Shown: one piece after another, positions 9,776 to 63,913 of the stretch
Numbering within the stretch: the stretch's first letter is position 1
Layout of the letters: each line of letters starts with the position of its first letter
Source of the DNA: a virus
IMG/VR virus record: IMGVR_UViG_3300033144_003327
Coordinates: 1 to 64,000 of that record
Length of the DNA stretch: 64,000 nucleotides
Direction: 5' to 3' (one strand)
Made by a program: the position numbers and the translations under genes
Notes under the pieces: model-generated
Seen by the model: the letters and a program-made list of their open reading frames with translations, nothing else
Told to the model about the DNA's origin: nothing
The model's database searches: none

Positions 9776-10173
9776 GAGAGAAGTTCCCCGGTAAAACTAG
9801 ATCCCGTGGGTTGAAGGGAAAGGTTTGCGCGGTAAGTTTGAATTCAACATCAAGTGAAGACTCGATAATACTCAGGATCACACTCAGTGAAGATCTCTTG
9901 AGTGAGATGGGATTGGCACTCGGTATGCGAGTCGATATGGATATTGCCGATGGCGTTGATCCGATAGAGATGCTCATCTACGGTGTGGAGGAGGGCGGCT
10001 GGAAGATCCTAGCCAGCGGTGTAACGGGTGACCATAAACACGGTATGATTGTTCCGGTGCTCGCAGTCAGTACCGCACCAGTCAAGAGTGAACGCGCAGA
10101 GATAAAATCCATCGCGGATTATCGTGTGCGCATTGTCGTACCACTGAAGGTTGCAGAGGCATTACAACTATGA
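9766..10173 (+). CDS. hypothetical protein embedded in deazaguanine cluster
   Basis: 136-aa ORF, ATG 9766 overlaps queD stop; coupled to queC. Confidence 0.3.
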
Positions 10174-44387: not shown

Positions 44388-46184
44388 GTGGCGCACAAGA
44401 AAGCACCTGTAGCGAAACCGAACGACGAATACAATGTGATGTCGTTGTTTTGGCATTTAACAGCCAGCCTCCGTGGTGGCACGCCAGCGATGCGCGGCGC
44501 CGGGCGGACGTACCTGCCCCAGGAGCCCGCTGAGAGTGAAGAGGCATACAAGAACCGTGCGCTGAGATCAGTCCTGACAAACCTTTACAAGAAGACAGCT
44601 GATAAGCTGGTGGGCAAGCCTTTGAAGAAAGGGGTGAAACTTTTAGAAGACGTCCCGCCAGAGATACGCAAGTTTGAGCCGAACATCGATAACCAGGGCA
44701 CCAATCTCAACGTATTTGCGAGAAACGTATTAGATTCCGCGGTTGACGACGGGGTGACCCACATTCTCGTTGATTTCAGCGATACTCAGAGCGTAGACGG
44801 TGAGTTCCCAGACGGAAGCCTGACATTGGCGCAAGAACAGAGGCTCGGAGTGCGGCCATACGCGCGACACGTCAGGGCCGCGGACTTGATAGGTTGGAAA
44901 AGTGAGCTCGTCAACAACAGTAAGGTCCTGACTCAGATCAGAATACAAGAGTTCGTGAAAGTGCAGGATCCGGATGATGAGTTCTCCCAAATCATGGTTG
45001 AAAGAATTCGGGTGGTGGAGCCTTTCCTGCAGAGGGTCTACGAGAGACAGACGAAAGAGAACGTCGGTGATGATAAGGATGAATACGTCCTAATTGAAGT
45101 GAAACCGACGACCATGCCTGTCATACCGTTAGTAACTTTCTACACTAATAAGAAAGGATTCATGCAAGGTGAGCCACTCTTGCTGGACATCGCGTACCTG
45201 AACGTGGCGCATTGGCAGAGTGACAGTGATCAACGTAACATTCTACACATCGCGCGGATTCCCATACTGTTCGCGACTGGTTTTGGCGATGACGACAGTC
45301 AAATCACGATAGAAATCGGTTCTAATACCTTCGCGAGAGCCCCGAAGGGCGCGACGTTGAGTTACGTGGAACATACGGGCAAGGGCATTGAGGCGGGAGC
45401 AAAAGACCTCAAGGATCTAGAAGAAAGAATCGTCCTCTTAGGAATGGAGATGTTGACGAAGCGACCACAGGGTAACGTGACGGCAACAGCACGGTCCATG
45501 GATCAGGTAGAAGCGGATAGCATCATTGGGCTAATCGCTAAAGAATTAGAAAACGCCATGGATGCGATGTTAGACTTGTTCGGAAGATGGTTGAACCTGG
45601 GCGTTGACTCCGGCGGCAGGACCGAAGTGTTTAAAGACTTCGGAATCGAGAGCGAAGATCTACAGGATGTTGAAATACTCCTTAGAGCTCGCATGGCCGG
45701 TGAAATTAGTCAGACAACGTTCTGGGATGAGATAAAACGTAGAGGACTCTTGAGTGACAGTTTTGATCCGCGCACGGAAATCGACCTCCTTGATATCGAG
45801 TCGGGTGGGTCGGTCAACATCACGGACAGCGGCCAAGGTGAGGATCCTGAAGAAGGGCTTCCAGGGGCGGCGCCTGAAAGACGCAACCGCGTCGGGGATA
45901 CCACTGCGGAAACCGACGGGCATACGCACGTCCTTCAAAGCGGGGACGTAACGGACACCGTCACAAATGAAGATGGTGAAAGTCACTCACATACGTGGGA
46001 CGAGCTAGGCATTAGAACATCAGTCGAAGATGCACATTCGCATCTTTTAGTCGTTAGAGCTGCCGCCGGCAGCCATGTAGGAGCAGAGGAAGATGAGCCA
46101 GAAGACAGTAGTGAAGGGGAGCAACCGCCAGGCCAGGCGCCAACCGGGTCAAGCCAGCAAAACAATCAATCGTCGGGCGCCTAG
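44388..46184 (+). CDS. portal protein (tentative)
   Basis: 598 aa directly after terL; acidic, His-rich C-terminal tail. Confidence 0.5.
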   Translation: MAHKKAPVAKPNDEYNVMSLFWHLTASLRGGTPAMRGAGRTYLPQEPAESEEAYKNRALRSVLTNLYKKTADKLVGKPLKKGVKLLEDVPPEIRKFEPNIDNQGTNLNVFARNVLDSAVDDGVTHILVDFSDTQSVDGEFPDGSLTLAQEQRLGVRPYARHVRAADLIGWKSELVNNSKVLTQIRIQEFVKVQDPDDEFSQIMVERIRVVEPFLQRVYERQTKENVGDDKDEYVLIEVKPTTMPVIPLVTFYTNKKGFMQGEPLLLDIAYLNVAHWQSDSDQRNILHIARIPILFATGFGDDDSQITIEIGSNTFARAPKGATLSYVEHTGKGIEAGAKDLKDLEERIVLLGMEMLTKRPQGNVTATARSMDQVEADSIIGLIAKELENAMDAMLDLFGRWLNLGVDSGGRTEVFKDFGIESEDLQDVEILLRARMAGEISQTTFWDEIKRRGLLSDSFDPRTEIDLLDIESGGSVNITDSGQGEDPEEGLPGAAPERRNRVGDTTAETDGHTHVLQSGDVTDTVTNEDGESHSHTWDELGIRTSVEDAHSHLLVVRAAAGSHVGAEEDEPEDSSEGEQPPGQAPTGSSQQNNQSSGA

Positions 46185-47241: not shown

Positions 47242-48027
47242 ATGGGCGACATAATAGATTCGGAAGACAACGAGATACCCGCCAGTCTGGCAAGTGCGAT
47301 TGCGATTGCCACTCTGGTCGAGGGAGCAAGGACTAGCCTTTGGAAGAGACGACTCTCTCAAACCCTGCTGAACGATATGATGGACGCTATCAGAGAATCG
47401 CTGGCAAATGGAGAGAACGTCAGTCAGGCTATTACTCGGGTCGTGGGCGGGAACGTCGAAGGCGTCCCAGTTACCGGAGCCCTTCAGAAGGTTCAACGAC
47501 AGACCTCGACGATAGTCAGCACAGCAATCGCGGCGATCTCAAACGCAGCACGCCTGGCGACGTTTCAGAAGAACACTGATGTCATCAAAGGATTACAACA
47601 GGTCAGCACTCTTGACAACAGGACGAGCAGAATTTGCATCTCGTACAGCGGGCAAGCGTGGGACGTTGAAACTTTGGAGCCCATCCTTGGCTCCACCTTA
47701 CCTTTCAACAACGGACCACCAAGGCACTTCAACTGTCGGTCGACACTCATACCGGTTCTTCGATCCTGGGAAGAGTTAGGCATACCCGTCACATCGTTGT
47801 CAGTTGGTCAACGTGCCAGCATGGATGGCGCACTCCCTGGAAACATCACTCTTGATCAATGGTTGCGAGGTAAGAGCAACCGTTTCCAAGATAACCTATT
47901 AGGACCCGCAAGAGCAAGGTTGTGGAGAGGCGGTAGGATAACGTTGACACAGTTAGTAGACATGCGGGGTAACCCTATGACGTTGGAACAACTAAGAGAC
48001 AAGATTGGGCGTCGGCGTCAAAGATAG
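47242..48027 (+). CDS. head morphogenesis protein (Mu F / SPP1 gp7 family)
   Basis: PPRHFNCRST matches conserved PxxHxNCRC motif of the family. Confidence 0.6.
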   Translation: MGDIIDSEDNEIPASLASAIAIATLVEGARTSLWKRRLSQTLLNDMMDAIRESLANGENVSQAITRVVGGNVEGVPVTGALQKVQRQTSTIVSTAIAAISNAARLATFQKNTDVIKGLQQVSTLDNRTSRICISYSGQAWDVETLEPILGSTLPFNNGPPRHFNCRSTLIPVLRSWEELGIPVTSLSVGQRASMDGALPGNITLDQWLRGKSNRFQDNLLGPARARLWRGGRITLTQLVDMRGNPMTLEQLRDKIGRRRQR

Positions 48028-48090: not shown

Positions 48091-48930
48091 ATGGAGGGAA
48101 TCCTTATGCCACTTGAAGCCACAGTTAGTTCATTAGAAGGTTTGAGCGAAGAAGTCTCACAACTCTACTCCGAGAAGGAGGGAGGAGGTTTCCAGCTTGC
48201 ATTACTGTCCAACTATGTCAGCAAAGAGGACGTTGAAGACACAGGTGGATTGAAATCAGCTCTTACTAAAGAACGTGATAACGTTCGAGAGTTGACAAGA
48301 AAGAACCAAGCGATATCGGAAAAGTTCGCTGGGTTCGACGTTGAAGAATTCAACGAGATGAAGAAGCATCAGCAAGACGCTGAAGAAGCTGAATCTGAAA
48401 AGAAAGGTGAATGGGACAAACTGAGGGATCAGATGCGTACCCAACAGAACGAAGCACTCGGTAAAAAGGACACCGAGATTGTTCGTTTGAAAAAGGAATT
48501 AGAGCGTCATTTAATCGACGCTCAAGCCACCGGGGCTATAAACGAGGAGGATGGAAACGTGATGCTTCTACTTCCACATGTTAAGTCTCTGGTGAAGCTG
48601 GTTGAAGAGGACGGGGCCTACAAGCCCCAAGTCGTAGACGCCTCCGGTAGCCCACGGGTAGATGCCGATGGTAATCCTCTTTCAATTAAGGCCCTGGTTA
48701 GCGAGATGCGAACCCAGGATGGTTTTGCAGGAGCCTTTAAAGGCACCGGTGCCGCAGGTGGTGGGACACCCCCAGCGGATGGTGGCGAAGGGAATTCTGC
48801 AGCCAACGGTGGTGGGACGCCTCCGGGAAACAGTGTCGAAGGAAAGCCGCGTTCAACGATGTCGCCACGCGAAAAGGTGGATTACATCAACGAACATGGC
48901 AACGACAAGTTTATGGCGTTGCCCGATTAG
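48091..48930 (+). CDS. scaffolding protein
   Basis: coiled-coil Glu/Lys-rich 279 aa between MuF-like and capsid genes, Gly-rich C-terminus. Confidence 0.5.
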   Translation: MEGILMPLEATVSSLEGLSEEVSQLYSEKEGGGFQLALLSNYVSKEDVEDTGGLKSALTKERDNVRELTRKNQAISEKFAGFDVEEFNEMKKHQQDAEEAESEKKGEWDKLRDQMRTQQNEALGKKDTEIVRLKKELERHLIDAQATGAINEEDGNVMLLLPHVKSLVKLVEEDGAYKPQVVDASGSPRVDADGNPLSIKALVSEMRTQDGFAGAFKGTGAAGGGTPPADGGEGNSAANGGGTPPGNSVEGKPRSTMSPREKVDYINEHGNDKFMALPD

Positions 48931-48973: not shown

Positions 48974-50029
48974 ATGCCAGCAGGTGGACGTCAACAGTGG
49001 GCCGGCAGCGGTGCCGCTGGTCATTTACCCCAAGGTCTTATCTACCCGGAGCTCGTACATTCCGGCCTAAGTGAAACTTTGGTCCAAAACACAGATGCCT
49101 TTAACGAAGCATCTCGCAACACGATTCGTCTTGTCACGTCAAGACGTCGCGGTGACTTTGCTCAAGAGTCATTCTTCAAGAACGTCAGTAACATTGTCCA
49201 GCGCAGGCTGGTCAGTTCTACGTCTCCTGAGAATCAGGCCGCAACGCCTTCCAACGTGCCGATGGACGAGCACATCTCAGTCAAGCTGAACCGACGTATC
49301 GGTCCTATTGACCAGACGTTCGATTCGTTCCGCAAACTCGGTGATGACGTTGACCTGGAAGTTTTATCCTTCCTGCTCGGCGGACAGATCGCGAAAGCGG
49401 TACAGGTCGATCAGCTGGAGGCTGGACTCACTGCATTGGTTGCCGCACTTAGCAATCAGGCAGGCGTGCTCGTTGATATCGGACCTGGCGCTTCACCACA
49501 GGCTACTATCCAGACCACGACTCTTGTCGACGGTTTGAATACGTTCGGTGACGCAGCAGGTCGTATCAGTATGTGGGTGATGCACTCAAAGGTGTATTTT
49601 GATCTTGTCAAAGAACAGATCAACGCCAACATCGACGGCGTGTCAAACTTCAACGTGGCGCAGGCTACGCCAATCACGTTGAATCGCCCAGTGCTTGTTA
49701 CTGACAGCGCAGCATTGATTGCCGCTGCACCGGTAGTGTCTCCGGACGTTGGTGCAAGGTACATCACGCTTGGCCTAACCGAAAACGCCGTTACGCTTGA
49801 AGACAGCGAAGAAGAGCTGTTGTATACGGACGTTATCACAGGTAACGAAAATATCGTTGCTCGTCTGCAAGGTGAGTTCGCTTACAATGTAGGCTGCAAG
49901 GGCTTCCGATATGATCCGGCCAACGGCGGCGTTAACCCTGATGATACGGCGCTCGGAACAGGCACCAACTGGGATGTTGTCATGGACAGCACGAAAGATC
50001 TCGGTGGTTGCGTAATCCGTACGCTCTAA
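48974..50029 (+). CDS. major capsid protein (tentative)
   Basis: 351 aa following scaffold, followed by strong terminator; RBS CTAGGAGGACTTAACCATG. Confidence 0.5.
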   Translation: MPAGGRQQWAGSGAAGHLPQGLIYPELVHSGLSETLVQNTDAFNEASRNTIRLVTSRRRGDFAQESFFKNVSNIVQRRLVSSTSPENQAATPSNVPMDEHISVKLNRRIGPIDQTFDSFRKLGDDVDLEVLSFLLGGQIAKAVQVDQLEAGLTALVAALSNQAGVLVDIGPGASPQATIQTTTLVDGLNTFGDAAGRISMWVMHSKVYFDLVKEQINANIDGVSNFNVAQATPITLNRPVLVTDSAALIAAAPVVSPDVGARYITLGLTENAVTLEDSEEELLYTDVITGNENIVARLQGEFAYNVGCKGFRYDPANGGVNPDDTALGTGTNWDVVMDSTKDLGGCVIRTL

Positions 50030-50095: not shown

Positions 50096-50683
50096 ATGGC
50101 TGAAGGAAAACCAGTAGAACAACCAGCATCCGTTATCTACTTTCGTGAAGACAGTGGAACAATGGCCAAGGGCCTTGGTTTACGTATAAGAGATCAAGGT
50201 GCTCTCACAAGGCTCGTTTGGGCACACCTGTTCAAAGGACCAGACCAAATAATTGACAACGCAGGCGCTGTCGTTATTGAAACCGCTGCTCCCAACGCGT
50301 CATTGATTGCTAGAAGCTACGAACGATTTGCCCACGATGTGGAGATACACTATGTTGACTCAGACGGAAAATTTGTCGAAGAACCCGATAATATCAGAGA
50401 AGAACGTCGAGCCAACTCCGTTATTCAAACGGATACCATCGTCGATCCCAAAGCGGCACTCGCTAGTCTTGCAGCCGCGGAGCCAGAACCTGAGCCTGAG
50501 CCTGATCCACCAAAATTCGAACCAGCGAACGAGCAAGATCCTGCTGGTGAGGTCAGCGGCGAAGATGGTCCATCCGAACCTGAAGTCAGTGATACAGTTG
50601 GGGGTGACGGGGTCAGTGAAGGAACTGAACACGATAGCGGAGTACGTAGCGAAGAGGTTCCGTCGACCAACGATAGCGATTGA
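50096..50683 (+). CDS. hypothetical virion-module protein with acidic Pro/Glu-rich tail
   Basis: 195 aa; AAAEPEPEPEPDPPKFEP low-complexity C-terminus. Confidence 0.3.
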   Translation: MAEGKPVEQPASVIYFREDSGTMAKGLGLRIRDQGALTRLVWAHLFKGPDQIIDNAGAVVIETAAPNASLIARSYERFAHDVEIHYVDSDGKFVEEPDNIREERRANSVIQTDTIVDPKAALASLAAAEPEPEPEPDPPKFEPANEQDPAGEVSGEDGPSEPEVSDTVGGDGVSEGTEHDSGVRSEEVPSTNDSD

Positions 50684-51052
50684 TTCGTTCGAAGGGTTTG
50701 AATCATCTGTACTTGACGGGAAGAATATAGCGACGCGGGGCCACTACCGTACCCCGCCGTCGGTTCACTCATTCGTAGAGTTGAGAAAAAACCTTCCCGA
50801 AATCGTTGATCCTATAGCCTTCGTGCATATCTGGAATCAGAGTTTAATCGAAAATCTGGTGCCTTATTTCGATCACATCGTTGATGACACCGTTGTTGTC
50901 GGTAGCATTGACGCACTGCAAGAGTTGGGTGAGAAGGCAAATCTTGAATATAGACCATTGTGCTATTTCAATGAATTTGTTGCTGTCAGAGTAATCTCGT
51001 CGTAGACTTAGGTTGATGACTATGTCGTCAGAAAAAGCCAAGAGGTATTGTC

Positions 51053-51334
51053 ATGAAAACTGAATTTTCTGCGTATAAAGAATTGGTTCTCGATGAAGAT
51101 GAGAACGGCGGGACCTGGATCGGTCGTATTTACAAACGAAAGGGTCCGGCTACAATGCTCGCCACCGCAAGTGGTAGCGCGAAAGATTTAGAAGCGGCAA
51201 GAGACGCCGCAGTAGAATGGGCTGACGCGGAACTTGAGAAGTACCGTATCGCGCCGGCACCAGTATCGTCCTTGGACGCTAAGAGGGCAAAGAGCGGTCG
51301 AGATATTGTCGGCATAATTCGTAAGACATTTTAA
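51053..51334 (+). CDS. hypothetical protein
   Basis: 93 aa. Confidence 0.3.
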   Translation: MKTEFSAYKELVLDEDENGGTWIGRIYKRKGPATMLATASGSAKDLEAARDAAVEWADAELEKYRIAPAPVSSLDAKRAKSGRDIVGIIRKTF

Positions 51335-51346
51335 CGAGGGAAGATC

Positions 51347-51781
51347 ATGGCTTTAGGATTCACAGCAGTATTACAACGCAACAGGCTGGATGAAATCACA
51401 GCCTTGATTAACGCAGTCGCAGATGGTTTGATTCGCATCTACAGCAATGGCAGACCGCTGAACGCAGACACTGCGATCACAGTCCCATCTCCGTTGCCTG
51501 TGCTATTGGCTGAACTGACGTTCGCCACCGCGAGTTTCCCGGCAGCATCGGGCACTCCAGGATCGATGACGGCCAACGCCATCGCGCCGGACACTTCGGC
51601 GGATGCGACAGGTGTCGCCACGTGGTTTAGGGTCAGCGATTCATCTGGCGCAGCCGTGTTTGACGGCGACGCGGGTATCGCTGGTTCGCCAACACCTGAC
51701 CTGGTCTTGAACTCCGCAACCATTAACTCTGGTGTGCAGGTTTCAATCAGCTCATTTGTTATAACCGCTGGTAACCAGTAA
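51347..51781 (+). CDS. hypothetical structural protein
   Basis: 144 aa Ala/Ser/Thr-rich. Confidence 0.3.
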   Translation: MALGFTAVLQRNRLDEITALINAVADGLIRIYSNGRPLNADTAITVPSPLPVLLAELTFATASFPAASGTPGSMTANAIAPDTSADATGVATWFRVSDSSGAAVFDGDAGIAGSPTPDLVLNSATINSGVQVSISSFVITAGNQ

Positions 51782-51791
51782 GAATTAGGAC

Positions 51792-51826
51792 GGCGCGCTT
51801 CATCTGGAGCGCGCCTCCTTTCAATT
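51792..51826 (+). terminator. hairpin terminator
   Basis: GGCGCGCT-tcatctgg-AGCGCGCC then TCCTTTCAATT. Confidence 0.45.
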
Positions 51827-51867
51827 CGCCTCTTGGCGTTGCCTCTAGGTGACACAGGAGGTTTGGA

Positions 51868-52149
51868 ATGCCCTGTTCCGGGAATTCAAGTGATCATTGC
51901 TGTTGGGTCAGCGGCAACCCGTGTGCGTTGCTCATAGAAAATCACGTAGATGAAACGGGCTACCTTCGCAGGTGGGCTTGTTCGCTGCGGGCCAAACTAG
52001 GCAATTGGGATGATGTAATCGTGCATCCGGATTATTTAGAAGCAACCAAAGGTGCGTGGACTAACGGCCTGAACTGTCGTGATTGGCCTGATGGTGAAGG
52101 TGCGAACCACGGCACCTGTGAGGATATGCGTTGCAGGGTGATTAGCTGA
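51868..52149 (+). CDS. Cys-rich small protein (9 Cys/93 aa)
   Basis: MPCSGNSSDHCCW...CALL...CSL...CRDW...CEDMRC. Confidence 0.3.
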   Translation: MPCSGNSSDHCCWVSGNPCALLIENHVDETGYLRRWACSLRAKLGNWDDVIVHPDYLEATKGAWTNGLNCRDWPDGEGANHGTCEDMRCRVIS

Positions 52150-53663
52150 TGGCTTTTTTTGACATCACAGTAACAGCCCAATCCGGACGCGCCGCCGGTA
52201 ACACTGGTAGCAGTAGTTTTTCTGAGCCGGGTGATTTTGATGGCGCGACGATTGACAGTGTCGCTATTATTGGCTCCCCTAACACTGTCACTTCTGATGG
52301 TGTTACCGACGATACCATAGGTGTTCGTTTCTGGATTGAAACAACTGGCGGTGGCGCAGATGTTTACGGCAGTAGCGGTTCGGATGCTGCATCCCTTTGC
52401 TTTGCTTCAGTAGGAGATTCAGCTTCTAGTGACATTATAACAGATGGAGCATCACCCAGCCCCGGTCCAACTATTGCAGTCGGAGCAGATTGGACCCGCG
52501 TAGGTTTCGCAATTAACTACAGCGCCAACATGAAGGATGATGGCGAGACTGTCTCTTGGTCAGCCTTCACCATCCGCGTTACTTATACCCCGATTCCTCC
52601 ACCAGACCTTCAGCAAGAACACTATCGTTTCGCTACGCCTATTACTGGCGCTGCGCATGAAGCATGGACGCTGGTTGGTAGTGAAGATACTAGTTTTGAG
52701 ATTGTTCTGGATGATGATTATGCGCTGATTGTTAAGCTAGGAAATGACGGGTCCGCCTCCGGCTTTCAAGGTTGGCAACTTGAATACAATGTTGATGGTG
52801 GTGGGTGGAATGCTGTCATTGATTCATCTAGCAATGTCCGTCTCACGGCATCTGGCGATGTAGATGGCGCGTTATCTGGGACTGAACGATTAACAGCATC
52901 AGCAAGAACTTTTCAGGCTAGCATCTTAGAAGAATTCGGCGGTGCCGCACTATCCTCAATATCAAACGCTGATAGTGACGTTGAACGTTACTATGCAATA
53001 ACGTTCCGCTCAGTGGACTTGAGTGGTGGGGAATCAATCCAGTTCAGAGTTACGACAACGGAGTCGGTCACTTATGACATAACGCCGACCGCAACTGTCC
53101 CGGGCGGCGTACACACCGTCACCGTCTCTGGCACAATCACAGAGAACCTATCCCCGGCTGGCTCATTGGAATCGCAAGTCCTTGGAAGTCCCGAACTCAC
53201 GATTATCCTGACGTTAGATGGCACGACGTGGGTCCCTGCAAGCGGCTCGCCGAACTTTGATGACAATCGACAGGCAATCATTGACGGCTTTGATTCGGAT
53301 GGCATAGAGAAACGAGGATGGAACACCGAGATTCGCGATGCATTAAACGTCGCGAACGTCGTGCGAACGTCTGACACTGTCGTCACGATCACGCTGGACG
53401 CGACAGATATCGGTGATTATTCGATCATCACTGACGAGACAATCACCTTCACACTTGAGCCATCAACACACATAGACGCAAGCGCATCCCCGTTCGACAC
53501 TGGTGTACCTCCGTTCACGATCACCGCAGAATGCAGTGAAGTGCTCCCGCCCGATGCTATAGTCACACAGCAAAACCTGTCCGGTGTCGTTGGCGACATC
53601 GACGAACCAGTCGTGTCCCCGGAAGGCTCCGACTGGTTAATTTTCGATCCACCTCCACTGTAG
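52149..53663 (+). CDS. structural protein (fibre/decoration-like), 504 aa
   Basis: Thr/Ser/Gly/Asp-rich, beta-rich composition. Confidence 0.4.
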   Translation: MAFFDITVTAQSGRAAGNTGSSSFSEPGDFDGATIDSVAIIGSPNTVTSDGVTDDTIGVRFWIETTGGGADVYGSSGSDAASLCFASVGDSASSDIITDGASPSPGPTIAVGADWTRVGFAINYSANMKDDGETVSWSAFTIRVTYTPIPPPDLQQEHYRFATPITGAAHEAWTLVGSEDTSFEIVLDDDYALIVKLGNDGSASGFQGWQLEYNVDGGGWNAVIDSSSNVRLTASGDVDGALSGTERLTASARTFQASILEEFGGAALSSISNADSDVERYYAITFRSVDLSGGESIQFRVTTTESVTYDITPTATVPGGVHTVTVSGTITENLSPAGSLESQVLGSPELTIILTLDGTTWVPASGSPNFDDNRQAIIDGFDSDGIEKRGWNTEIRDALNVANVVRTSDTVVTITLDATDIGDYSIITDETITFTLEPSTHIDASASPFDTGVPPFTITAECSEVLPPDAIVTQQNLSGVVGDIDEPVVSPEGSDWLIFDPPPL

Positions 53664-53672
53664 GAAATTAAA

Positions 53673-53978
53673 ATGGCTTTCAAGGTCGAGAGAGAAAACA
53701 CAAGACTCCAAGACATCCAAGTCGGTGCGCAGAACTACAACACAGGCGAGCAGGCGTTCCGAGCGGCTATGGGGAACATGACCAAGTTCATCACTGATCA
53801 TTGGGATGCGGCGAACGGCATCGCCAATCGTGACGGTCCGATGAACGACGCGAAGTTCAAGGTCTACGTTAACCGACGTCCGGGAACGGCAGAGATAAAC
53901 CTGCGTTATGACTACGGTTTCGGATCTCCTGAAGTGTGGGAAACGAATAACATCTTTTGGCGGATCCTTGAGGTTTAA
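53673..53978 (+). CDS. hypothetical protein
   Basis: 101 aa. Confidence 0.3.
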   Translation: MAFKVERENTRLQDIQVGAQNYNTGEQAFRAAMGNMTKFITDHWDAANGIANRDGPMNDAKFKVYVNRRPGTAEINLRYDYGFGSPEVWETNNIFWRILEV

Positions 53979-53981
53979 GTC

Positions 53982-55460
53982 ATGCCAATTTTAGATATCA
54001 TACGGACAGTAGGTGATCGTGTAGCCAGCACTGCTTCAGGTTGGGTGAGAACACACGCGATCGGCATCGGCGGAAACACTGTGCATTCTGACGGCACAGC
54101 AGAATTTTTCTGTATTACGACGGGAATTTTCGGTGGGGACAGCACTGTCACAAATGATTACGAACTGGTGCTGCGGGATGGCGACACCGACATTGAACAC
54201 ACAAGATGTTTGTTGGAACCTCCAGTGGCAAGCACCACTTTTCTCGGGGCACATTATGCCTTCGGGACGAAAATTACAAAATTGCGGACGTCGCCGCGGA
54301 CGTCGCCGCTTCCTGATATCGCATTGTGGATGAGAGTATCGACAGCTGATCGAGTTGCAAGCTGTGTGGTTGACTCGTGGCTCATTCCACTTGATGATTT
54401 AGTAGAGGGGCAAGACTGGTTGTCAGCTGAAACCTCCCCAGTAGGGAACGCGCCTCAAACATACACAGACGGGGCAAGCATACAATTGCCGGGGGGCATC
54501 TCTCCCGAAGACGATTGGGTCATTTTTGCTACAACACATTGGCTTGTTGATAGCACAAACGCTGATATGTCAATGAGAATAGTTGACGGTGACGAGTCTC
54601 CGGAGGGGCATCACACAGAGGCGCGTTTTGAAGGCGAGGACACCAGTAATCAGCATTCTTTCATGACCACAAAACTCACGAAAGGATCTCCGGCAGGATC
54701 TCCGGAGAAAGTGGTTAAAGTTCAATATAAAAATAGTGCGAATAACAATGATTGCGACCACACAGAAATCTTCGCGCTACGATTGAATATATTCAAAAAT
54801 TACATGATAGATCAGACCGCTGTTGGCGCACCGTTGAACACGTTTGGTGGACCGTTCAGTCCAACGCCTCCAGATGCAGACCCACTTGTCACTGAGTTCG
54901 ATATAGTCGGCATTACAGCGAGCCCGGATACGCAATTTATGACGATGGCTTTTGGAAGATTCACGGGCACTGACGACAATAATCAAAGAGAAATCCTGTC
55001 GCGAGTTTTCGACCAGATCGGTTCTCCCAGTCGTGCGGCACAATCGCCCTATTCATTAGAACTCTCGCCGCAACATTTTCAATCAGCTGGTGACTTCACT
55101 ATTGGACAGATGGGAAATAACGCCAGTACTGAACTGCATCCGGTGTTTAAAATAAGTCGTAAAGATTCTTTGGATTCCGGGCAGTTTGATCAGACACTGA
55201 CGACGATGTCCGTTCCGAGTGTCGCTAATGTCGGCGATCCCGTCGCGGAAGATGTTGATTTTTGGCATTGCACGTTCGGTCGTGAGCTTGCAGAAGGCGT
55301 CCCGTCTCCACAATCTCCGCAGGGCGGCGGCGGATCCCCAACGCCTGTATCCCTCACCTCTGACGACTTCCGTTTCAGAGAGAACGACGGCAGCGAGTCA
55401 GCCGCAACGTGGATCGCAGCGCAGGACACTGACATCACGAGGCCGCAGGGGCAAACGTAA
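53982..55460 (+). CDS. structural protein, 492 aa
   Basis: ATGA-coupled to giant repeat gene. Confidence 0.4.
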   Translation: MPILDIIRTVGDRVASTASGWVRTHAIGIGGNTVHSDGTAEFFCITTGIFGGDSTVTNDYELVLRDGDTDIEHTRCLLEPPVASTTFLGAHYAFGTKITKLRTSPRTSPLPDIALWMRVSTADRVASCVVDSWLIPLDDLVEGQDWLSAETSPVGNAPQTYTDGASIQLPGGISPEDDWVIFATTHWLVDSTNADMSMRIVDGDESPEGHHTEARFEGEDTSNQHSFMTTKLTKGSPAGSPEKVVKVQYKNSANNNDCDHTEIFALRLNIFKNYMIDQTAVGAPLNTFGGPFSPTPPDADPLVTEFDIVGITASPDTQFMTMAFGRFTGTDDNNQREILSRVFDQIGSPSRAAQSPYSLELSPQHFQSAGDFTIGQMGNNASTELHPVFKISRKDSLDSGQFDQTLTTMSVPSVANVGDPVAEDVDFWHCTFGRELAEGVPSPQSPQGGGGSPTPVSLTSDDFRFRENDGSESAATWIAAQDTDITRPQGQT

Positions 55461-58400
55461 TGGCCGCTGATACCTTTTTCCGGTTACGCATAGGCGTCCG
55501 CAACGACGGCGGAGCGATAGACCAGACGTATACGTTGCAAGTGAGCGACGATGTTGGTGGCAGTTGGACGGATGTAACCGACTCTTCGGACACTTGTCGA
55601 TTGGTAGCAGTCGGATCCCCGGCGTACTTCGCAGACCTTGATGCAACGACAGAACAGCTCGCAGGATCGGGAACATTCATCGCGGGTGAGATGATCGAGG
55701 GCACCGGTACGGCTGTCACCAGTTCGGTACTCCTGCAACTCGGCGAAGAGACAGAATTCGAATTTTTGCTGGAGGCGCACAACAACATACAAGGCGCGAC
55801 GCTCTCATTTCGTTTGGTGGGAAGTGTAACGTCTCCGATAGCGGTGCCACAGACAGTTGTCCCGGACTACACGATCGACAGCAGTGCCGCAGAGACAATC
55901 TGTGATGTATCTTTCCCGACACCGGCTGTTGCGCCGTACTTTGAAAGTGATTCACCCGAAACGCCGAAACAGGTGTTCAAATGGGAGCTGCGAAAAGATA
56001 GTCTGAACTCGGGCACCGGAACACCGACTGCTGATTTCTTCCTGTATGAAGGCGGCGTACTTCGGGAGACATTAACGCAGGGCGTTTCAATAACCGATGC
56101 CGTGCGGCAGATCGTGACAGTCACATGGGATGCGAAAAACCTTGTTGATCCTACAGGCGCAGATGTTGAAGCCCGGATGCGTGGCAACGTCGGCGGGAGT
56201 GGCGTTCAACAAAGAACCGTTGAAGTTGGCGCCGTTGAGTGGTGTGTAGAGCACGCCTTACCGACAGCGAATGTCACTGGCACCGTCAACGTAACGCTCG
56301 GCGACGATACGCTTGCCGCATCCGGTGATCGGTCATTCCTTGGCACTGTTGCAGTAACGCTGGGTGATGACACCCTAGTCGCAGCGGGCGGAATTGAAGT
56401 TTCAGGATCCGTTGCCGTAACGCTTGGCGACGACACTCTCGTCGCAGCAGGGACGCCAGAGATAATTGGCACCGTCGCTGTAACCGAAGGTGATGACACC
56501 CTCGCGGGCGCGGGCGAGCTTGAATACATCGGCACCGTCGCAGCAACCCTCGGAGATGACACGCTGGTTGCGGCTGGCGAGCTGGAAGTATCCGGCACCG
56601 TCGCAGCGACAACGTTAGACGATACTCTCGCGGGCGCGGGCGAACAAGACAACCGTGGAACAGTAGCGTCCACAACGTTAGATGATACGCTTGCCGCAAC
56701 AGCCATCGCCGCGATTACCGGAACCGTCGCAGCAACAACGTTAGACGACACGCTAGTCGCTACTGGTGCACAAGACAATCAAGGAACCGTCGCAGCAACA
56801 ACGTTAGACGACACGCTCGTAGCTTCGGCCGAACAAGACAACCGCGGAACCGTTGCAACGACAACGTTAGACGACACGCTAGTCGCCGCCGCGTCAACGG
56901 GAGACGTAACCGGAACCGTTGCAACGACAACGTTAGACGACACGCTCGTTGGATCAGCTGAGCAAGACAACCGCGCAACAGTCGCAGCGACAACGCTAGA
57001 TGACACGCTAGTCGCCGCCGGTCTCACTGGTGATATACTCGGTACCGTTGCAGCGACGACTCTCGATGACACGCTTGTCGCGGCAGGTGAGCAAGACAAC
57101 CGCGCAACAGTCGCAGCGACAACGTTAGACGACACGCTTGTCGCAGCCGGTGACATTGAAGTCGTCGGCGATGTTGACGTCAATCTTGATGCCACCGAAG
57201 GTGATGACACGCTTGTCGCAGCCGGTGATCTTGAATATGTAGGTACTGTCGCAACAACGACGTTAGACGATATTCTTGTCGCCGCAGCCGAACAAGACAA
57301 CCGTGGAACAGTAGCGTCCACAACGTTAGACGACACGCTCGCCGCTGCCGGTGCAATAGAAGTTGACGGCACGGTCGCAGTTACCCTGGGCGACGACACT
57401 CTTGTCGCAGCCGGTGACGTAGCTTCAGAGACCACTGGAACAGTCGCAACCACGACCCTTGACGACACTCTTGTCGCTTCTGGTGAACAAGACAACCGCG
57501 GAACAGTCGCAGCGACGACGTTAGACGATATTCTTGTCGCAGCCGGGTTGACAGGTGACGTAACAGGTACCGGTAGTGTTACATTAGGTGACGACACGCT
57601 CGTCGCTTCTGGTGAACAAGACAACCGCGGTACCGTTGCAGCGACGACGTTAGACGATACGCTTGCGGCGACCGGTAGTGTTGATGTCGTCGGTGACGTA
57701 GACGTCAATCTTGATGCTACTGAAGGCGACGACACGCTCGTTGCCGCTGGTGACCTTGAATACGTAGGTTCTAGTGCAGTCACATTAGGTGATGATACTC
57801 TTGTCGCAGCCGGTGCCCTTGAATACATCGGCACCGTTGCATCCACGACCCTTGACGATACTCTCGCGGCCGCAGGATTGACAGGAGACATACTCGGTAC
57901 CGTCAGCGTAACGTTGGGTGATGATACTCTTGTCGCTTCGGCTGAACAAGACAACCGGGGTACTGTCGCAGCGACAACGCTAGACGATACTCTAGTCGCA
58001 GCTGGTGTTAACGGGACTGATGCGACAGTCGCAGCGACGTTGGGTGACGACACACTCGCGGGTGCCGCCGAACAAGACAACCGCGGAACAGTCGCAGCGA
58101 CAACGCTAGACGATACTCTAGTCGCAGCTGGTGAACAAGACAACCGGGGTACTGTCGCAGCGACAACGCTAGACGATACTCTAGTCGCTTCTGGTACAAC
58201 GGGTGACGTGACTGGCACCGCTAGTGTCACGTTAGGTGACGACACGCTCGCCGGATCAGCCGAACAAGACAACCGGGGTACTGTCGCAGCGACATTAGGT
58301 GATGACACTCTCGTCTCCGACGGTGACGTTGAAGTCGTCGGCGATATTGACGTCGATCTCGATGCTACTGAAGGCGATGATACTCTTGTCGCAGTCGGCG

Positions 58401-60367
58401 AACAAGATAACCGAGCGACAGTCGCAGCAACATTAGGAAATGACACGCTTGCGGCGACTGGAGGCCAAGGCCTAGACGGCGCCGTAAACACAACAACGTT
58501 GGATGACACTCTTGTCGCGGCGGCAACGACAGGCGACATACTAGGTACCGTTGCTGTCACGTTAGGTGATGACACTCTTGCCGCTTCAGCTGAACAAGAC
58601 AACCGCGGAACAGTCGCGGCAACGACGTTAGACGATACTCTAGTTGCCACCGGTGACGTTGAGGTCATCGGTGATGTAGACGTTAACCTAGATGCCACTG
58701 AAGGTGATGACACGCTCGTTGCAGTCGGTGATCTTGAATACATTGGATCGGTCGCAGCAACGACGTTAGACGATACTCTAGCCAGTTCAGCTGAACAAGA
58801 CAACCGCGGTACTGTCGCGGCAACAACTCTTGATGATACTCTAGTCGCTTCAGGAGCGACGGGAGACGTAGCGGGCACAGTCGCAGTCACGTTAGGTGAC
58901 GATACTCTAGCCAGTTCAGCCGAGCAAGATAACCGCGGTACTGTCGCAGCAACGACGTTAGACGATACTCTAGCCGCCGCCGGTGATGTTGAAGTCATCG
59001 GCGACATTGATGTCAACCTTGATGCTACAGAAGGTGATGATACTCTCGTCGCAGCTGGTGACCTTGAATACATTGGCACTGTAGCATCCACGACCCTTGA
59101 CGACACGCTAGTCGCTTCGGCTGAACAAGATAACCGTGGAACTGTTGCCGCCACAACGCTTGATGACACGCTCGTCGCATCAGGCGAGGTAGCCGGCGAC
59201 ATAACAGGATCGGTCAGCGTAACGCTAGAAGATGACACGCTAGTCGCTTCGGCTGAACAAGATAACCGTGGAACTGTTGCCGCCACAACGCTTGATGACA
59301 CGCTTGTCGCATCAGGGTCAACTGGAGACGTATCGGGAACCACCTCTGTAACGTTAGGTGACGACACGCTCGTTGCAACCGGTAGCGTTGAAGTCATCGG
59401 CGACATTGATGTCAACCTTGATGTCACTGAAGGTGACGACACGCTCGTTGCAACCGGTAGCGTTGAAGTCGTCGGAGATGTCAACGTTGACCTTGACGTT
59501 ACTGAAGGTGATGACACCCTAGTTTCATCTGGTGCTATTGACAATCAGGGAACAGTCGCAGCGACAACGTTAGACGACACGCTCATCGCTTCAGCATCAC
59601 AAGGCCTAGACGGCGCAGTCAATGCAACGCTGGGAGATGACACCCTTGTAGCCTCAGGTGAACAAGACAACCGCGCAACGGTTGCCGTCACATTAGAAGA
59701 TGACATCCTTGTAGCGTCTGGCGCAACAATTGTCTCCGGCACACTGAGTGTTACACTTGAGAACGACACTCTTGCTGCGTCTGGCTTAGCTGAGTTTGTC
59801 GGAACGCTATCAGTCACGCTAGAAGACGATGTCCTAGTCGCTTCAGCTGACCTTGAATACATAGCGGCAGCAGATATCACACTCGGAGATGACACCCTTT
59901 CTGCAGACGCTGCGATAGACATCCAGGGAACGGTCACCGCAACACTTGACGATGATACCACAGTCATTGCAGGTGTATCTGGCAACCCAGTCACAGGAAC
60001 CGCCGCCGCAACACTTGACGATGATACCACAGTCATATCTTCTGATCAGGCAGTAATCGGCTCTATTAGTCAAATACTCGATGACGATATTGGCGCAGCT
60101 AATGGCTCACTTGAGGTCATTGGTCTCGTAACCAACACTCTTGAAGATGACGTATCAGCATTCTTTGGTGAGATACAACTCTCTGGAACCATCGGTGTCG
60201 TACTGGAACGCGACACCGCAGTGGTTGGTACAGTGGTTGGTTTCTTTGAAAACTTCGTTGATATCACAGGCAAGGTCACAACGCGAGTCGTTATCAACGG
60301 ACAAGTCGTAACTGAGACTGAGATAATCGGTGAAGTCGTGACCCAAGTCGAAGTAGAAGCGGGATGA
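55460..60367 (+). CDS. giant (1635 aa) tandem-repeat structural protein (fibre-like)
   Basis: 270-aa unique N-terminus then dozens of ~20-aa repeats (GTVAATTLDDTLVAAGEQDNR / TLGDDTLVAAGDLEYIG variants); no in-frame stops over 4.9 kb. Confidence 0.6.
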   Translation: MAADTFFRLRIGVRNDGGAIDQTYTLQVSDDVGGSWTDVTDSSDTCRLVAVGSPAYFADLDATTEQLAGSGTFIAGEMIEGTGTAVTSSVLLQLGEETEFEFLLEAHNNIQGATLSFRLVGSVTSPIAVPQTVVPDYTIDSSAAETICDVSFPTPAVAPYFESDSPETPKQVFKWELRKDSLNSGTGTPTADFFLYEGGVLRETLTQGVSITDAVRQIVTVTWDAKNLVDPTGADVEARMRGNVGGSGVQQRTVEVGAVEWCVEHALPTANVTGTVNVTLGDDTLAASGDRSFLGTVAVTLGDDTLVAAGGIEVSGSVAVTLGDDTLVAAGTPEIIGTVAVTEGDDTLAGAGELEYIGTVAATLGDDTLVAAGELEVSGTVAATTLDDTLAGAGEQDNRGTVASTTLDDTLAATAIAAITGTVAATTLDDTLVATGAQDNQGTVAATTLDDTLVASAEQDNRGTVATTTLDDTLVAAASTGDVTGTVATTTLDDTLVGSAEQDNRATVAATTLDDTLVAAGLTGDILGTVAATTLDDTLVAAGEQDNRATVAATTLDDTLVAAGDIEVVGDVDVNLDATEGDDTLVAAGDLEYVGTVATTTLDDILVAAAEQDNRGTVASTTLDDTLAAAGAIEVDGTVAVTLGDDTLVAAGDVASETTGTVATTTLDDTLVASGEQDNRGTVAATTLDDILVAAGLTGDVTGTGSVTLGDDTLVASGEQDNRGTVAATTLDDTLAATGSVDVVGDVDVNLDATEGDDTLVAAGDLEYVGSSAVTLGDDTLVAAGALEYIGTVASTTLDDTLAAAGLTGDILGTVSVTLGDDTLVASAEQDNRGTVAATTLDDTLVAAGVNGTDATVAATLGDDTLAGAAEQDNRGTVAATTLDDTLVAAGEQDNRGTVAATTLDDTLVASGTTGDVTGTASVTLGDDTLAGSAEQDNRGTVAATLGDDTLVSDGDVEVVGDIDVDLDATEGDDTLVAVGEQDNRATVAATLGNDTLAATGGQGLDGAVNTTTLDDTLVAAATTGDILGTVAVTLGDDTLAASAEQDNRGTVAATTLDDTLVATGDVEVIGDVDVNLDATEGDDTLVAVGDLEYIGSVAATTLDDTLASSAEQDNRGTVAATTLDDTLVASGATGDVAGTVAVTLGDDTLASSAEQDNRGTVAATTLDDTLAAAGDVEVIGDIDVNLDATEGDDTLVAAGDLEYIGTVASTTLDDTLVASAEQDNRGTVAATTLDDTLVASGEVAGDITGSVSVTLEDDTLVASAEQDNRGTVAATTLDDTLVASGSTGDVSGTTSVTLGDDTLVATGSVEVIGDIDVNLDVTEGDDTLVATGSVEVVGDVNVDLDVTEGDDTLVSSGAIDNQGTVAATTLDDTLIASASQGLDGAVNATLGDDTLVASGEQDNRATVAVTLEDDILVASGATIVSGTLSVTLENDTLAASGLAEFVGTLSVTLEDDVLVASADLEYIAAADITLGDDTLSADAAIDIQGTVTATLDDDTTVIAGVSGNPVTGTAAATLDDDTTVISSDQAVIGSISQILDDDIGAANGSLEVIGLVTNTLEDDVSAFFGEIQLSGTIGVVLERDTAVVGTVVGFFENFVDITGKVTTRVVINGQVVTETEIIGEVVTQVEVEAG
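56270..60130 (+). repeat. ~60-bp tandem repeat array inside giant structural gene
   Basis: recurrent GGAACAGTCGCAGCGACAACGTTAGACGACACGCTCGTCGC-type units. Confidence 0.7.
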
Positions 60368-60411: not shown

Positions 60412-60789
60412 ATGGCCATTAAAGCTGATCTTGGAGGGAACCCTGTTTACTTCTCAGGAGACACTCTTAAAATCCAAGTCACTGTGAAAGATGGCGATGC
60501 CTCTCCGCAAGTGTCACCGGAACCGCCCCTTGATTTGACGTTGGTGACGACAGTTACGTGGGTTCTTGCTAGGGCACAAGGACGAGCACCGATACTCACG
60601 AAGACTAATGGATCGCCCGACGGCATAACTATCATCGATGCCGTGAACGGCAGGCTTGACATTCAACTTGATAACGCTGACACGGCTAACTTGAAAGGAA
60701 CGTTCTATCACGAGTTACAGATTGAACCTGGACCCAGCACAGCTCTATACGGCGCCTTCGTCATACAAGACGACTCCGCTCCACCTTAA
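60412..60789 (+). CDS. hypothetical beta-rich protein (Ig-like?)
   Basis: 125 aa. Confidence 0.3.
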   Translation: MAIKADLGGNPVYFSGDTLKIQVTVKDGDASPQVSPEPPLDLTLVTTVTWVLARAQGRAPILTKTNGSPDGITIIDAVNGRLDIQLDNADTANLKGTFYHELQIEPGPSTALYGAFVIQDDSAPP

Positions 60790-62680: not shown

Positions 62681-63913
62681 ATGTCAGACGCTTCAAGTAC
62701 ACAATTATTCTATAGGCCTGAGACTACGTGGGGTGAAGACCCAACCGTAGCTTCACCCCAAGCGCCGCTTCGTGAATTTAGATTTACGAATGAGTCATTA
62801 AACTTCACAGCCAACACTGAAGTGTCGGAAGAGATACGAAGTGATCGCCAGGTAGCTGACATCATACGTACTGGCGTGGAGAGTGGCGGTGATGTCGGAA
62901 TCGAGTTCAGCTTCTCGGCCCACGACGATTTGTTTGAAGGCGCGCTCTATAACAACTGGACAGCCGTTCAAGATTCGAACACAGTGTCACCACTGGCTAC
63001 GACATTCCTTGTGGCAGGCTCCCCTGACGGAACAACCATTTCAGTTGGATCACCGACAGCCGGCGAGATTGCTTTCCTAGACGGTCTTACAGTCGGCGCG
63101 TTCATTGAGCTGACCGAATCAATTGCTTCGCCGACTAATAACGGATTCACTCGTGTTACGGCTAACAGCGGCGCCGGTTCAATTACAGTCAGTCCAGCGA
63201 TCCCCGGCATCGGACAAGACACGTTCCGTATTCGTGAAAGTCATTTACGGAACGGAACAACGTTGAAATCATTCCTGCTCGAAAAGTCGTTTACTGACAT
63301 CGGTGAGTTCATTAGTTTCAGTGGTATGCGAGTCGGTAACGCTCAGTTGAACATTGCGCCAGGAAGCATCTTGAACGGACAATTCAGCTTCCAGGGTGAG
63401 ACAGCAACCGCACAGTCAGCCAGTATCATTGCTGGAGCGATATCGCCGGAGACTGTACCCGTTGCTGCTAACGATGTATTCAACGCGATTGACAACATCG
63501 GCGACATACTCATAGACGGTGTTGAAGATCCTACCGTCTGCTTCACAGAGGTATCGTTCACGATTGAGAACAACCTTCGCAACCAACCCTGTATCGGTCA
63601 GTTAGAAAACAGCGGTATTGGTGTCGGACGAACGAACGTCACAGGCACGTTGTCTGCCTACTTCGTGAATCGTAACCTGTATGATTCCTATCTAAACTTT
63701 GACACCGTGTCGTTGTCGTTCACAGTAACGCTCGGTGGTAATACCTACTTGTTTGATTTTCCATCGTTCAAGTTCACGAACGGAGAAGTCGTGGCCGGCG
63801 GAAATGATCAAGACGTGCTTGTCACAATGGAGTTCACAGCGAAACGTGATCCGACGCTGGGCTTCACGATGGGCATCAACCGCTTTGGTACAATACCAAC
63901 GCTAGTGCAATAA
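62681..63913 (+). CDS. major tail protein or tail sheath protein
   Basis: 410 aa, first large gene after connector/terminator set; RBS GAGGGAATTAGTCATG. Confidence 0.35.
   Translation: MSDASSTQLFYRPETTWGEDPTVASPQAPLREFRFTNESLNFTANTEVSEEIRSDRQVADIIRTGVESGGDVGIEFSFSAHDDLFEGALYNNWTAVQDSNTVSPLATTFLVAGSPDGTTISVGSPTAGEIAFLDGLTVGAFIELTESIASPTNNGFTRVTANSGAGSITVSPAIPGIGQDTFRIRESHLRNGTTLKSFLLEKSFTDIGEFISFSGMRVGNAQLNIAPGSILNGQFSFQGETATAQSASIIAGAISPETVPVAANDVFNAIDNIGDILIDGVEDPTVCFTEVSFTIENNLRNQPCIGQLENSGIGVGRTNVTGTLSAYFVNRNLYDSYLNFDTVSLSFTVTLGGNTYLFDFPSFKFTNGEVVAGGNDQDVLVTMEFTAKRDPTLGFTMGINRFGTIPTLVQ

Follow-up and report, generated by a model that had tools for sequence, protein, structure and literature searches.

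A candidate virion fibre protein with N-terminal domains split across gene boundaries in an uncultivated siphovirus

The sequence analysed here, referred to as the window, comprises positions 1 to 64,000 of the IMG/VR virus record IMGVR_UViG_3300033144_003327, and this report concerns ORF2, the largest of its open reading frames (ORFs). ORF2 lies on the plus strand at 55460..60367, starts with ATG, and encodes 1635 amino acids (aa; 162.6 kDa, pI ~4.05), the runner-up being 663 aa. A previous reading of the same DNA, made from sequence only, had described a 1635-aa structural protein as the largest gene of the window; its position, length, and rank were found as described, and its structural role is supported by genomic context, since in this siphovirus structural module ORF2 is flanked by the major head protein on one side and the head-tail adaptor on the other. 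Upstream, on the same strand, lie o504 (52149..53663, 504 aa), o101 (53673..53978, 101 aa), and ORF1 (53982..55460, 492 aa), which encodes a partner protein identical to P0019 and homologous to P0020, P0021, and P0022. We propose that ORF2 would form the shaft of a fibre on the virion surface of this uncultivated siphovirus, as its shaft subunit, and that the ends of the ORF1 and o504 proteins may complete two domains at its base.

ORF2 and its repeat array

The ORF2 protein is strongly acidic, with 295 Asp and Glu residues vs 37 Lys and Arg residues, and aa 273-1583 (56276..60208, plus strand) consist of ~60 tandem units that, based on repeat analysis and AlphaFold2 (AF2) modelling, are predicted to form a beta-solenoid shaft. 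When the protein motif [DEN]D[TIV]x was used as an anchor to delimit the units, 60 DDTL-type anchors were observed from aa 273 to ~1583 at a spacing of 21-25 aa, corresponding to 42 units of 21 aa, 8 of 22, 3 of 23, and 7 of 25. The unit consensus is xGTVA(A/V)T(L/T)(G/L)DDTLVA(S/A)G(E/D)x(D/E)x, in which G2, T7, D10, D11, T12, and L13 are conserved, and its core is the motif TVAATTLDDTL to which the sequence-only reading had drawn attention. That reading had also described dozens of near-identical 60-bp units, a description that needs to be corrected on both counts: the unit is 63 bp (21 aa) and the copies are diverged, the 21-aa units sharing on average 51% aa and 56% nucleotide (nt) identity in pairwise comparisons, with a maximum of 87% nt. 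In the Tandem Repeats Finder output, overlapping arrays at ~56470-59520 show matches of only 56-85% at periods of 63, 126/129, 189, and 330 bp, with a top score of 1036, and the repeats are far beyond chance. The longest exact DNA repeat within ORF2 is 71 bp, and the invariant D-D-T-L positions are encoded by mixed synonymous codons (GAC/GAT, ACG/ACT/ACC, and CTT/CTC/CTA), indicating that the array is old and has been maintained by selection at the protein level. The repeat region is composed of 17% Thr, 15% Ala, 15% Asp, 12% Val, 11% Gly, and 10% Leu, and contains no Lys.

The array is followed by ~52 C-terminal aa (60209..60364, plus strand) comprising one degenerate unit and a non-repetitive, beta-rich end (FFENFVDITGKVTTRVVINGQVVTETEIIGEVVTQVEVEAG), and no relative of the C-terminal ~52-65 aa was found among the 172 proteins compared. 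An antisense ORF of 921 aa (56779-59544, minus strand) was dismissed as a by-product of the stop-free repeats, as were further antisense ORFs running through the array at 56206-56778 (190 aa) and 59545-60036 (163 aa). An exact-sequence look-up with ORF2 returned no record.

Beta-solenoids are characterised by tandem repeats of ~12-30 residues, one per coil, and the 60 units, of 21 aa with 22-, 23-, and 25-aa variants, fall within this range. In the AF2 model, which included eight units and was based on a 25-sequence alignment, two strands alternate with two turns in each unit, namely xxxGTVAVT (strand, 9 residues), LGDDT (turn, 5 residues), LVAA (strand, 4 residues), and a closing turn of 3 residues, with predicted local distance difference test (pLDDT) values of 67-75 for the repeats. 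Fold matches of the model include Candida Awp adhesins, autotransporter and TpsA passengers, left-handed helices of the LpxD type, and phage tailspikes; we attribute these matches to the repeats because the aligned length equals the eight modelled units and a jelly roll cannot give such matches. The repeats would thus be expected, at the level of a prediction, to fold as a single-chain beta-solenoid with one unit per turn, and at the canonical rise of 0.48 nm per coil 60 turns would give a rod of ~29 nm. The Thr residues at unit positions 3, 7, and 12 fit structural ladders better than glycosylation sites. Together with the Asp-Asp pair conserved at the turn, these ladders may form Ca2+ sites similar to those of RTX-like beta-helices. 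ORF2 is not an RTX protein, although its GDDTL turn resembles GNDTL, since the Pfam RTX repeat PF00353 gave no match at E <= 0.1 and the period is 21 aa, not 9 or 18. The second-best PDB sequence match, which is non-significant (E 0.098), is 3p4g, domain RIV of the Marinomonas primoryensis antifreeze protein, in which we read a period of 19 aa.

Two N-terminal domains and their missing strands

The ~270 aa that precede the array had been regarded as a unique N-terminus. This region is indeed non-repetitive and of about that length, but it is not unique, consisting of two domains, A and B, with many metagenomic homologues. Four proteins (P0023, P0025, P0026, and P0031) carry both N-terminal domains with a repeat array behind them and are 39-47% identical to ORF2 over ~300 aa (phmmer E 3e-153 to 1e-34). 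Their domain A is continuous and begins ...AFRFVDDDGSESGSTFLAALNTDYTGDRDTVYRCRLGIDNPGG..., whereas in the window the first half of this start is the end of ORF1, ...DDFRFRENDGSESAATWIAAQDTDITRPQGQT*, and the second half is the start of ORF2, MAADTFFRLRIGVRNDGG... The ~30 first residues of domain A, contiguous in the continuous homologues, are therefore the last residues of ORF1 here: ORF1 aa 461-492 (55362..55457, plus strand) correspond to the first two strands of domain A, and ORF2 aa 1-139 (55460..55876, plus strand) to domain A without these strands. Relative to the four continuous homologues, alignment A1 contains a 6-residue insertion (GQT/MAA) exactly at the ORF boundary. Elsewhere, domain A is invariably unsplit, whether repeated in tandem (P0037) or placed N-terminally in other proteins.

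The two ORFs overlap at a TAATG stop/start (55458..55462, plus strand), with AGGGG located 9-13 nt 5' of the ATG. The same TAATG split is present in the metagenomic relative L002, whose ORF1 is 39% identical, and in L029, a contig from a second sample, and a sequencing error as the origin of the split is thereby ruled out. A further ORF1-like protein, P0022 (803 aa, L003 2670-5081), ends ~65 residues into domain A and is followed by an unrelated gene; the same locus also encodes a PA14 protein.

Domain B of ORF2 (aa 140-265; 55877..56254, plus strand) is likewise without its first strands. A word-indexed search with ORF2 aa 1-280 recovered 18 proteins that match only aa ~145-270, that is, domain B, and in these proteins domain B lies at their own N-terminus and is followed by repeats of quite different sequence. 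The homologues with a complete domain B in the same chain start with a conserved segment of ~33 aa, (M)xERxxPDAILxQTNLxGxVxDIDDDPDSPDGNWL, hereafter the plug, which ORF2 lacks. Using tblastn, this segment was found at the end of the o504 protein, which terminates in ...ECSEVLPPDAIVTQQNLSGVVGDIDEPVVSPEGSDWLIFDPPPL*; its aa 466-504 (LPPDAIVTQQNLSGVVGDIDEPVVSPEGSDWLIFDPPPL; 53544..53660, plus strand) thus correspond to the N-terminal segment of domain B on a separate protein. The remainder of o504 comprises an N-terminal domain, a complete domain A (from ~aa 158), and a ~130-aa domain preceding the plug. When the o504 tail is joined to ORF2 from aa 140 onward, the alignment is gapless, DWLIF|DSSAAETICDVSF vs the same-chain AWLTAISNNANSICRVSF.

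We modelled this o504-tail/ORF2 fusion with AF2 (25-sequence alignment) and obtained a mean pLDDT of 80, with values of 85-98 for plug and domain B. Foldseek matched plug and domain B to carbohydrate-binding modules (CBM4, CBM27, and CBM36), the HpiC1 cyclase, APC10, and the muskelin discoidin domain, all of which are galactose-binding-like jelly rolls (probability ~1.0, E ~1e-3, identity 8-16%), and domain B has no Pfam match. Domain B of ORF2 is accordingly described here as a CBM-like (galactose-binding-like) jelly roll without its ~33-aa N-terminal plug.

If this model is correct, a gene encoding the plug is to be expected close to each fibre gene whose domain B lacks one. The pattern was first seen in L019 and L020/L021; L030, L031, and L032 were taken as test loci, and the prediction held in all three, as well as in L002 and L022. 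A hidden Markov model (HMM) of the plug, built from same-chain N-termini only, matched once, and only once, in each locus, namely the window, L002, L019, L020/L021, L022, L030, L031, and L032 (E 4e-6 in the window to 4e-16), and in 8/8 distinct loci the match falls at the very C-terminal end of an ORF that precedes the fibre gene; the same HMM found no match in three control loci. In the window, L002, L019, and L030-L032 the plug is carried by a protein resembling o504, and in L020/L021 by one resembling ORF1 (P0021), implying that proteins of the ORF1 and o504 types can take each other's place as partners, each with a complementing peptide at its end. Within same-chain proteins the plug belongs to the domain B fold, and its co-occurrence with the fibre gene is recurrent; whether it binds between separate chains, from o504 to ORF2, is an evenly balanced question when judged from these sequence comparisons.

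In L019, two paralogous proteins of 310 and 476 aa are encoded upstream of the plug gene (L019 86-2448). By eye, the N-terminus of the 476-aa protein looks like that of right-handed beta-helix (pectate-lyase-like) tailspikes, a hint that enzymes may be hung on such fibres.

Genomic context and relatives

Context genes were assigned by PHROGs and Pfam. The structural module begins with the large terminase, TerL (42962-44386), and the portal (44388-46184), followed by an SPP1 gp7-like protein (47242-48027), a scaffold (48091-48930), and the major head protein (48974-50029). Seven ORFs without known function then follow, encoding 195, 144, 504, 101, 492, 1635, and 125 aa, and downstream of these are the adaptor Ad1, the head closure Hc1, Neck1, the tail terminator, and the tail tube. 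The 195-aa protein encoded directly after the major head gene (50096-50683) is 35% identical to its L002 counterpart, has a very acidic, Pro/Glu-rich C-terminal half (EPEPEPEPDPPKFEPANEQDP...), and gave no family match. The 144-aa protein o144 (51347..51781, plus strand) belongs to phrog_3758, 'virion structural protein', a family that is also encoded immediately 5' of the fibre gene in locus L017, and the 125-aa protein o125 (60412..60789, plus strand), between the fibre and head-tail adaptor genes, belongs to phrog_1084 (function unknown). The small protein o101 is 71% identical in three related contigs representing two distinct loci (L002 and L020/L021) and is thus far better conserved than the ORF1-like gene always found directly downstream of it (39%); within the cassette, o101 may act as a chaperone or a structural adaptor. 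The tail tube (62681-63913) is the last structural gene before the window ends; no tape-measure or tail-tip genes are present in the window, and, with a source contig of ~66.4 kb, the genome is probably incomplete.

Judged by its major head protein, the nearest isolate is Tunturiibacter phage Tunturi_4 (38.8% identity), in which the adaptor gene directly follows the head protein gene. The metagenomic relative L002, whose head protein is 70% identical, has the same gene order as the window, including homologues of o144, o504, o101, ORF1, and ORF2. Among 50,697 phage records, a near-identity search with the DNA of the structural module found no match, nor did tblastn with the ORF2 N-terminus, the repeats, and same-chain domain B. 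PHROGs, Pfam, and NCBIfam gave no real match for ORF2, ORF1, o504, or o101; the Pfam lines PBP5_C, NifZ, and WDR19 obtained for ORF2 contain no individually significant stretch and were rejected as repeat-composition noise. Viral contigs scanned with the single ORF2 N-terminus sequence gave no match, and a profile scan of these contigs recovered same-chain domain B loci only; a metagenome scan yielded mainly short domain A fragments, and a genome scan one fragment of a metagenome-assembled genome, with no clue to the host. A phmmer search with ORF2 aa 1-1200 retrieved 1622 representatives at E <= 1e-3, most of which carry the 21-aa repeat behind various N-terminal domains. The 21-residue repeat is therefore widespread yet unannotated, with ~1600 metagenomic representatives and none in isolated phages.

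Same-chain fibre genes were also found in head-gene contexts. In L004/L007, an HK97-type capsid gene is followed by three small genes, the fibre gene with plug and domain B in one chain, and a PF24163 (HCP) gene; in L017, the same-chain fibre gene follows TerL, portal, gp7-like, and phrog_3758 genes; and in L018 it follows a head protein gene. Among homologues, domains A and B are retained and the distal part is exchanged for other repeats, LamG-like domains (L018), a globular C-terminal domain (P0048), or RHS repeats (P0112). A conserved N-terminus combined with a variable distal part is the usual pattern of an anchor, which would place the N-terminal complex proximal to the particle, with capsid or neck as the site. 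A short C-terminal tail of strongly basic character (...RRPRR, ...GGRRR, ...TTRRRR, ...WRKR) was seen in many same-chain fibre proteins, as in L009, L010, and L017 and in P0003, P0024, P0027, P0036, and P0072, and is absent from ORF2. Such a tail might label the end in contact with the particle or with DNA.

Proposed assembly, alternatives, and known systems

Based on these data, we propose that an 8-kb fibre cassette (o504, o101, ORF1, and ORF2; 52149-60367) was inserted in the head-morphogenesis module, the placement expected of a head-fibre gene and found here in the order major head protein - ORF2 - Ad1. In this scheme, ORF1 would supply domain A, and o504 domain B, with the strands they lack, and by such fold complementation both proteins would dock at the fibre base. 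The resulting complex of three proteins would either attach the rod to the particle, with the capsid or neck as the most probable site, or equip the rod with accessory binding domains, and the fibre would serve reversible primary adhesion to the host surface. A beta-solenoid fibre on the virion is probable, and we lean towards a virion fibre docked to its two partner proteins by fold complementation; for the docking step itself, which is read from sequence comparisons, the chances are roughly even, and much the same applies to a capsid rather than a neck or tail location. That this uncultivated tailed-phage family generally joins fibres to partners by split-domain, or 'plug-and-socket', complementation, used twice on this fibre, we put forward tentatively, at slightly short of even odds; under such a scheme, the same-chain relatives would represent the ancestral unsplit state. 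The adhesion function is proposed by analogy with the fibres of phi29, phiCbK, and 7-7-1 (PMC6542822, PMC3556154, PMC12796354) and with beta-helix adhesins.

Several alternatives bear on whether ORF2 is a single, correctly assembled gene product. The unit number or order, and hence the 1635-aa length, could be wrong even though the gene exists. The sequence-only reading had anticipated a probably unstable, possibly mis-collapsed array, and one observation in its favour is that the second contig of the same phage, L029 (7,410 bp, from another Joint Genome Institute (JGI) sample, 99.99% identical to window 50550-57960), terminates within the array, as does the contig of the relative L002. L029 also lacks one C at window 57622 / L029 7073 (GAACAAGACAACC -> GAACAAGAAACC), truncating its gene call to 730 aa, a 1-nt deletion close to the contig end and probably due to misassembly; in L019 the fibre gene is interrupted where the reading frame shifts within the repeats, and every unit is a multiple of 3 nt, so an open frame is no proof of a correct count. 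Simple collapse, however, is at odds with the divergence of the units and their short exact repeats, the synonymous diversity at conserved positions speaks against recent duplication or collapse, and L029 is collinear with the window across 7.4 kb, spanning the ORF1/ORF2 junction and the first ~2.5 kb of ORF2 with the N-terminal domains and ~27 repeats. The proximal part of the array is thus independently confirmed, while the distal 2.4 kb, and hence the exact unit count, is based on a single contig; overall, we regard a partly artefactual array as unlikely. A second possibility is that ORF1 and ORF2 are read through as one protein. Some phages add C-terminal extensions to structural proteins by programmed -1 frameshift, and ORF2 is in the -1 frame relative to ORF1, in a frame that is open from 55433 and overlaps the end of ORF1 up to its stop at 55458-55460. 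Slippage, e.g., of tRNA-Gly on GGGG at 55448-55451, would produce a ~2,130-aa protein with an intact domain A, as in the other homologues, where this domain is continuous, besides the shorter 492-aa protein; it would yield the junction peptide ...TRPQGANVMAADTFFR / ...DITRPQGANVMAADTFFR, where separate initiation would yield (M)AADTFFR. Both the G4 run of the window and an A_AAT in L002 fall within the permissive stretch, but these candidate slip sites differ in kind and position, and there is no X XXY YYZ heptamer in 55433-55457. Moreover, conservation across the window/L002 junction, which is 85% identical elsewhere, is lowest in the 25-nt permissive stretch, downstream RNA folding is no better than in shuffled controls (z = 0.54 for the window, -1.39 for L002), and both lineages keep TAATG with AGGGG or GGGAG before the ATG, which a frameshift extension would not need. 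Frameshifting is therefore an outside possibility, and the favoured reading, which we hold with fairly good confidence, is that ORF1 and ORF2 are two polypeptides made by coupled translation.

Two other alternatives concern what the fibre does and where it sits. The sequence-only reading had called the Thr-rich repeats an obvious substrate for a glycosyltransferase and methyltransferase toolkit, which would make the repeats mainly an O-glycosylation scaffold for GT8 and FkbM enzymes and the fibre glycan-coated. Such a toolkit does exist in the window: two clear GT8 genes (2977-3759 and 3632-4504) and a weak third (22474-23208), an NAD-dependent epimerase/dehydratase (4514-5425), a radical SAM/SPASM protein (5412-6389), and two FkbM methyltransferases (21111-21800 and 21797-22486). 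Virion glycosylation in mycobacteriophages has reportedly been described by Freeman et al. 2023. The repeats are nonetheless a poor candidate for a target of the window's toolkit, in that Thr is fixed in the unit (position 7 in 41/42 and position 12 in 37/42), as in the Thr ladders of beta-helices, and the only candidate sequon lies elsewhere. Ser-Pro dipeptides, often in the context GSP, are in excess in ORF1 (15 observed vs 3.0 expected), o504 (8 vs 3.0), the tail tube (7 vs 1.7), and o125 (3 vs 0.5), and there are none in the portal, gp7-like protein, Neck1, or terminator. The same excess is seen in the L019 and L002 homologues, and the Ser-Pro codons are mixed, implying selection on the protein; this excess may represent a modification sequon. 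ORF2 contains three Ser-Pro only, all read in the N-terminal domains and none in the repeats, so that any such sequon points away from the repeats. A further radical SAM protein (8302-9015) and QueC (10170-10895) suggest 7-deazaguanine (preQ0-type) DNA modification, and hence modification enzymes acting on DNA as well. Taken together, a glycan scaffold seems improbable. Less easily set aside, though still on the unlikely side, is a fibre that is associated with the tail (side, collar, or neck) and not with the capsid, with its position in the head module reflecting gene mobility. Against this, same-chain relatives repeatedly follow capsid or small head-protein genes and precede connector genes in unrelated phages, the window, which ends just past the tail tube, contains no genes of the tape measure or tail tip, and the fold matches are generic.

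Other observations weigh against the proposed docked fibre itself. The plug model is an artificial fusion that draws its confidence from same-chain homologues, and it speaks for the plug as part of the fold in those proteins rather than for binding of o504 to ORF2; the corresponding AF2 fusion of the ORF1 tail with domains A and B (5 sequences) is poor (pLDDT 52), and the AF2 models were judged by pLDDT, secondary structure, and fold matches. ORF2 retains its own YTI strand at the position of the same-chain (W)LTA, leaving only ~30 residues missing, and a domain truncated in this way might be stable by itself. Domain B is also found in some cellular proteins that carry signal peptides and are secreted, implying that domain B is not a dedicated capsid-binding domain. 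The suggested location on the particle is read from gene order alone, with no relative in 50,697 isolated-phage records, and the fibre orientation, oligomeric state, Ca2+ binding, and receptor are all putative.

Among known systems, the head fibre gp8.5 of Bacillus phage phi29 resembles ORF2 in being encoded right after the major capsid gene and in combining an N-terminal base with a repetitive shaft. gp8.5 is a non-essential decoration that aids adsorption (structure paper, ref. 22 in PMC12796354; assembly, PMC6542822). Unlike ORF2, it is ~280 aa and trimeric, and its shaft is a supercoiled helix-turn-helix repeat, while ORF2 has a predicted beta-solenoid shaft and a base split over three genes; no homology to gp8.5 was detected in ORF2 by PHROG, Pfam, or NCBIfam matches or by tblastn in 50,697 phage records. 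The 2,799-aa gp76 of Caulobacter phage phiCbK, a repeat-expanded candidate head filament encoded nearer to head than to tail genes, is likewise a large repeat protein placed on the particle by a gene-order argument (PMC3556154), but it is Gly/Ala/Pro-rich, predicted to be flexible, and carries a ConA-like domain. In Agrobacterium phage 7-7-1, capsid-vertex fibres bind flagella, and the fibre-forming proteins have not yet been identified (PMC12796354); nothing in the window indicates flagellotropism.

Further from phages, beta-helix adhesins (tapirins, autotransporter passengers, TpsA/FHA, and Candida Awp) are cellular secreted proteins with other repeats and other anchoring than ORF2, and RTX-like Ca2+-dependent beta-helices differ from its 21-aa period, at 19 aa (3p4g) or 9 or 18 (classical RTX). 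The family 4, 27, and 36 CBMs and other galactose-binding-like jelly rolls share the fold of plug and domain B at 8-16% identity, and sugar binding is only putative. The closest parallel to the proposed pairing of ORF1 with domain A and of o504 with domain B is donor-strand complementation in chaperone-usher pili, where an incomplete beta-sandwich is completed by a strand of another polypeptide, and, more broadly, split-protein complementation. Strand complementation in pili gives a very stable non-covalent joint. In pili, the donated strand comes from the N-terminal extension of the following subunit, which is identical or similar, whereas here it would come from the C-terminal tails of unrelated upstream proteins, as suggested by comparative evidence alone. 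A literature search on strand complementation in phage fibres returned nothing relevant, and we found no description of a fibre attached via domains completed by the ends of neighbouring proteins.

Phage fibres set host range and the first contact with the host. Capsid fibres have been seen on several phages, and their proteins and mode of attachment are mostly unknown, gp76 being a candidate only. ORF2 represents an uncharacterised, widespread type of predicted beta-solenoid fibre, and the unusual, well-replicated feature of its locus, as apparent from sequence comparison, is that the presumed sockets at the fibre base are cut off from their first strands by gene boundaries. The locus thus offers a concrete candidate mechanism of attachment, with gene boundaries cutting through domains, and the natural split and unsplit pairs make the docking hypothesis directly testable by co-expression. 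If true, it would allow modular swapping of shafts and of adaptor or receptor-binding modules by recombination at domain-internal gene boundaries, plug peptides and sockets could be used as orthogonal protein-coupling tags, and plugs would help to predict which genes of metagenomic phages encode products that assemble together.

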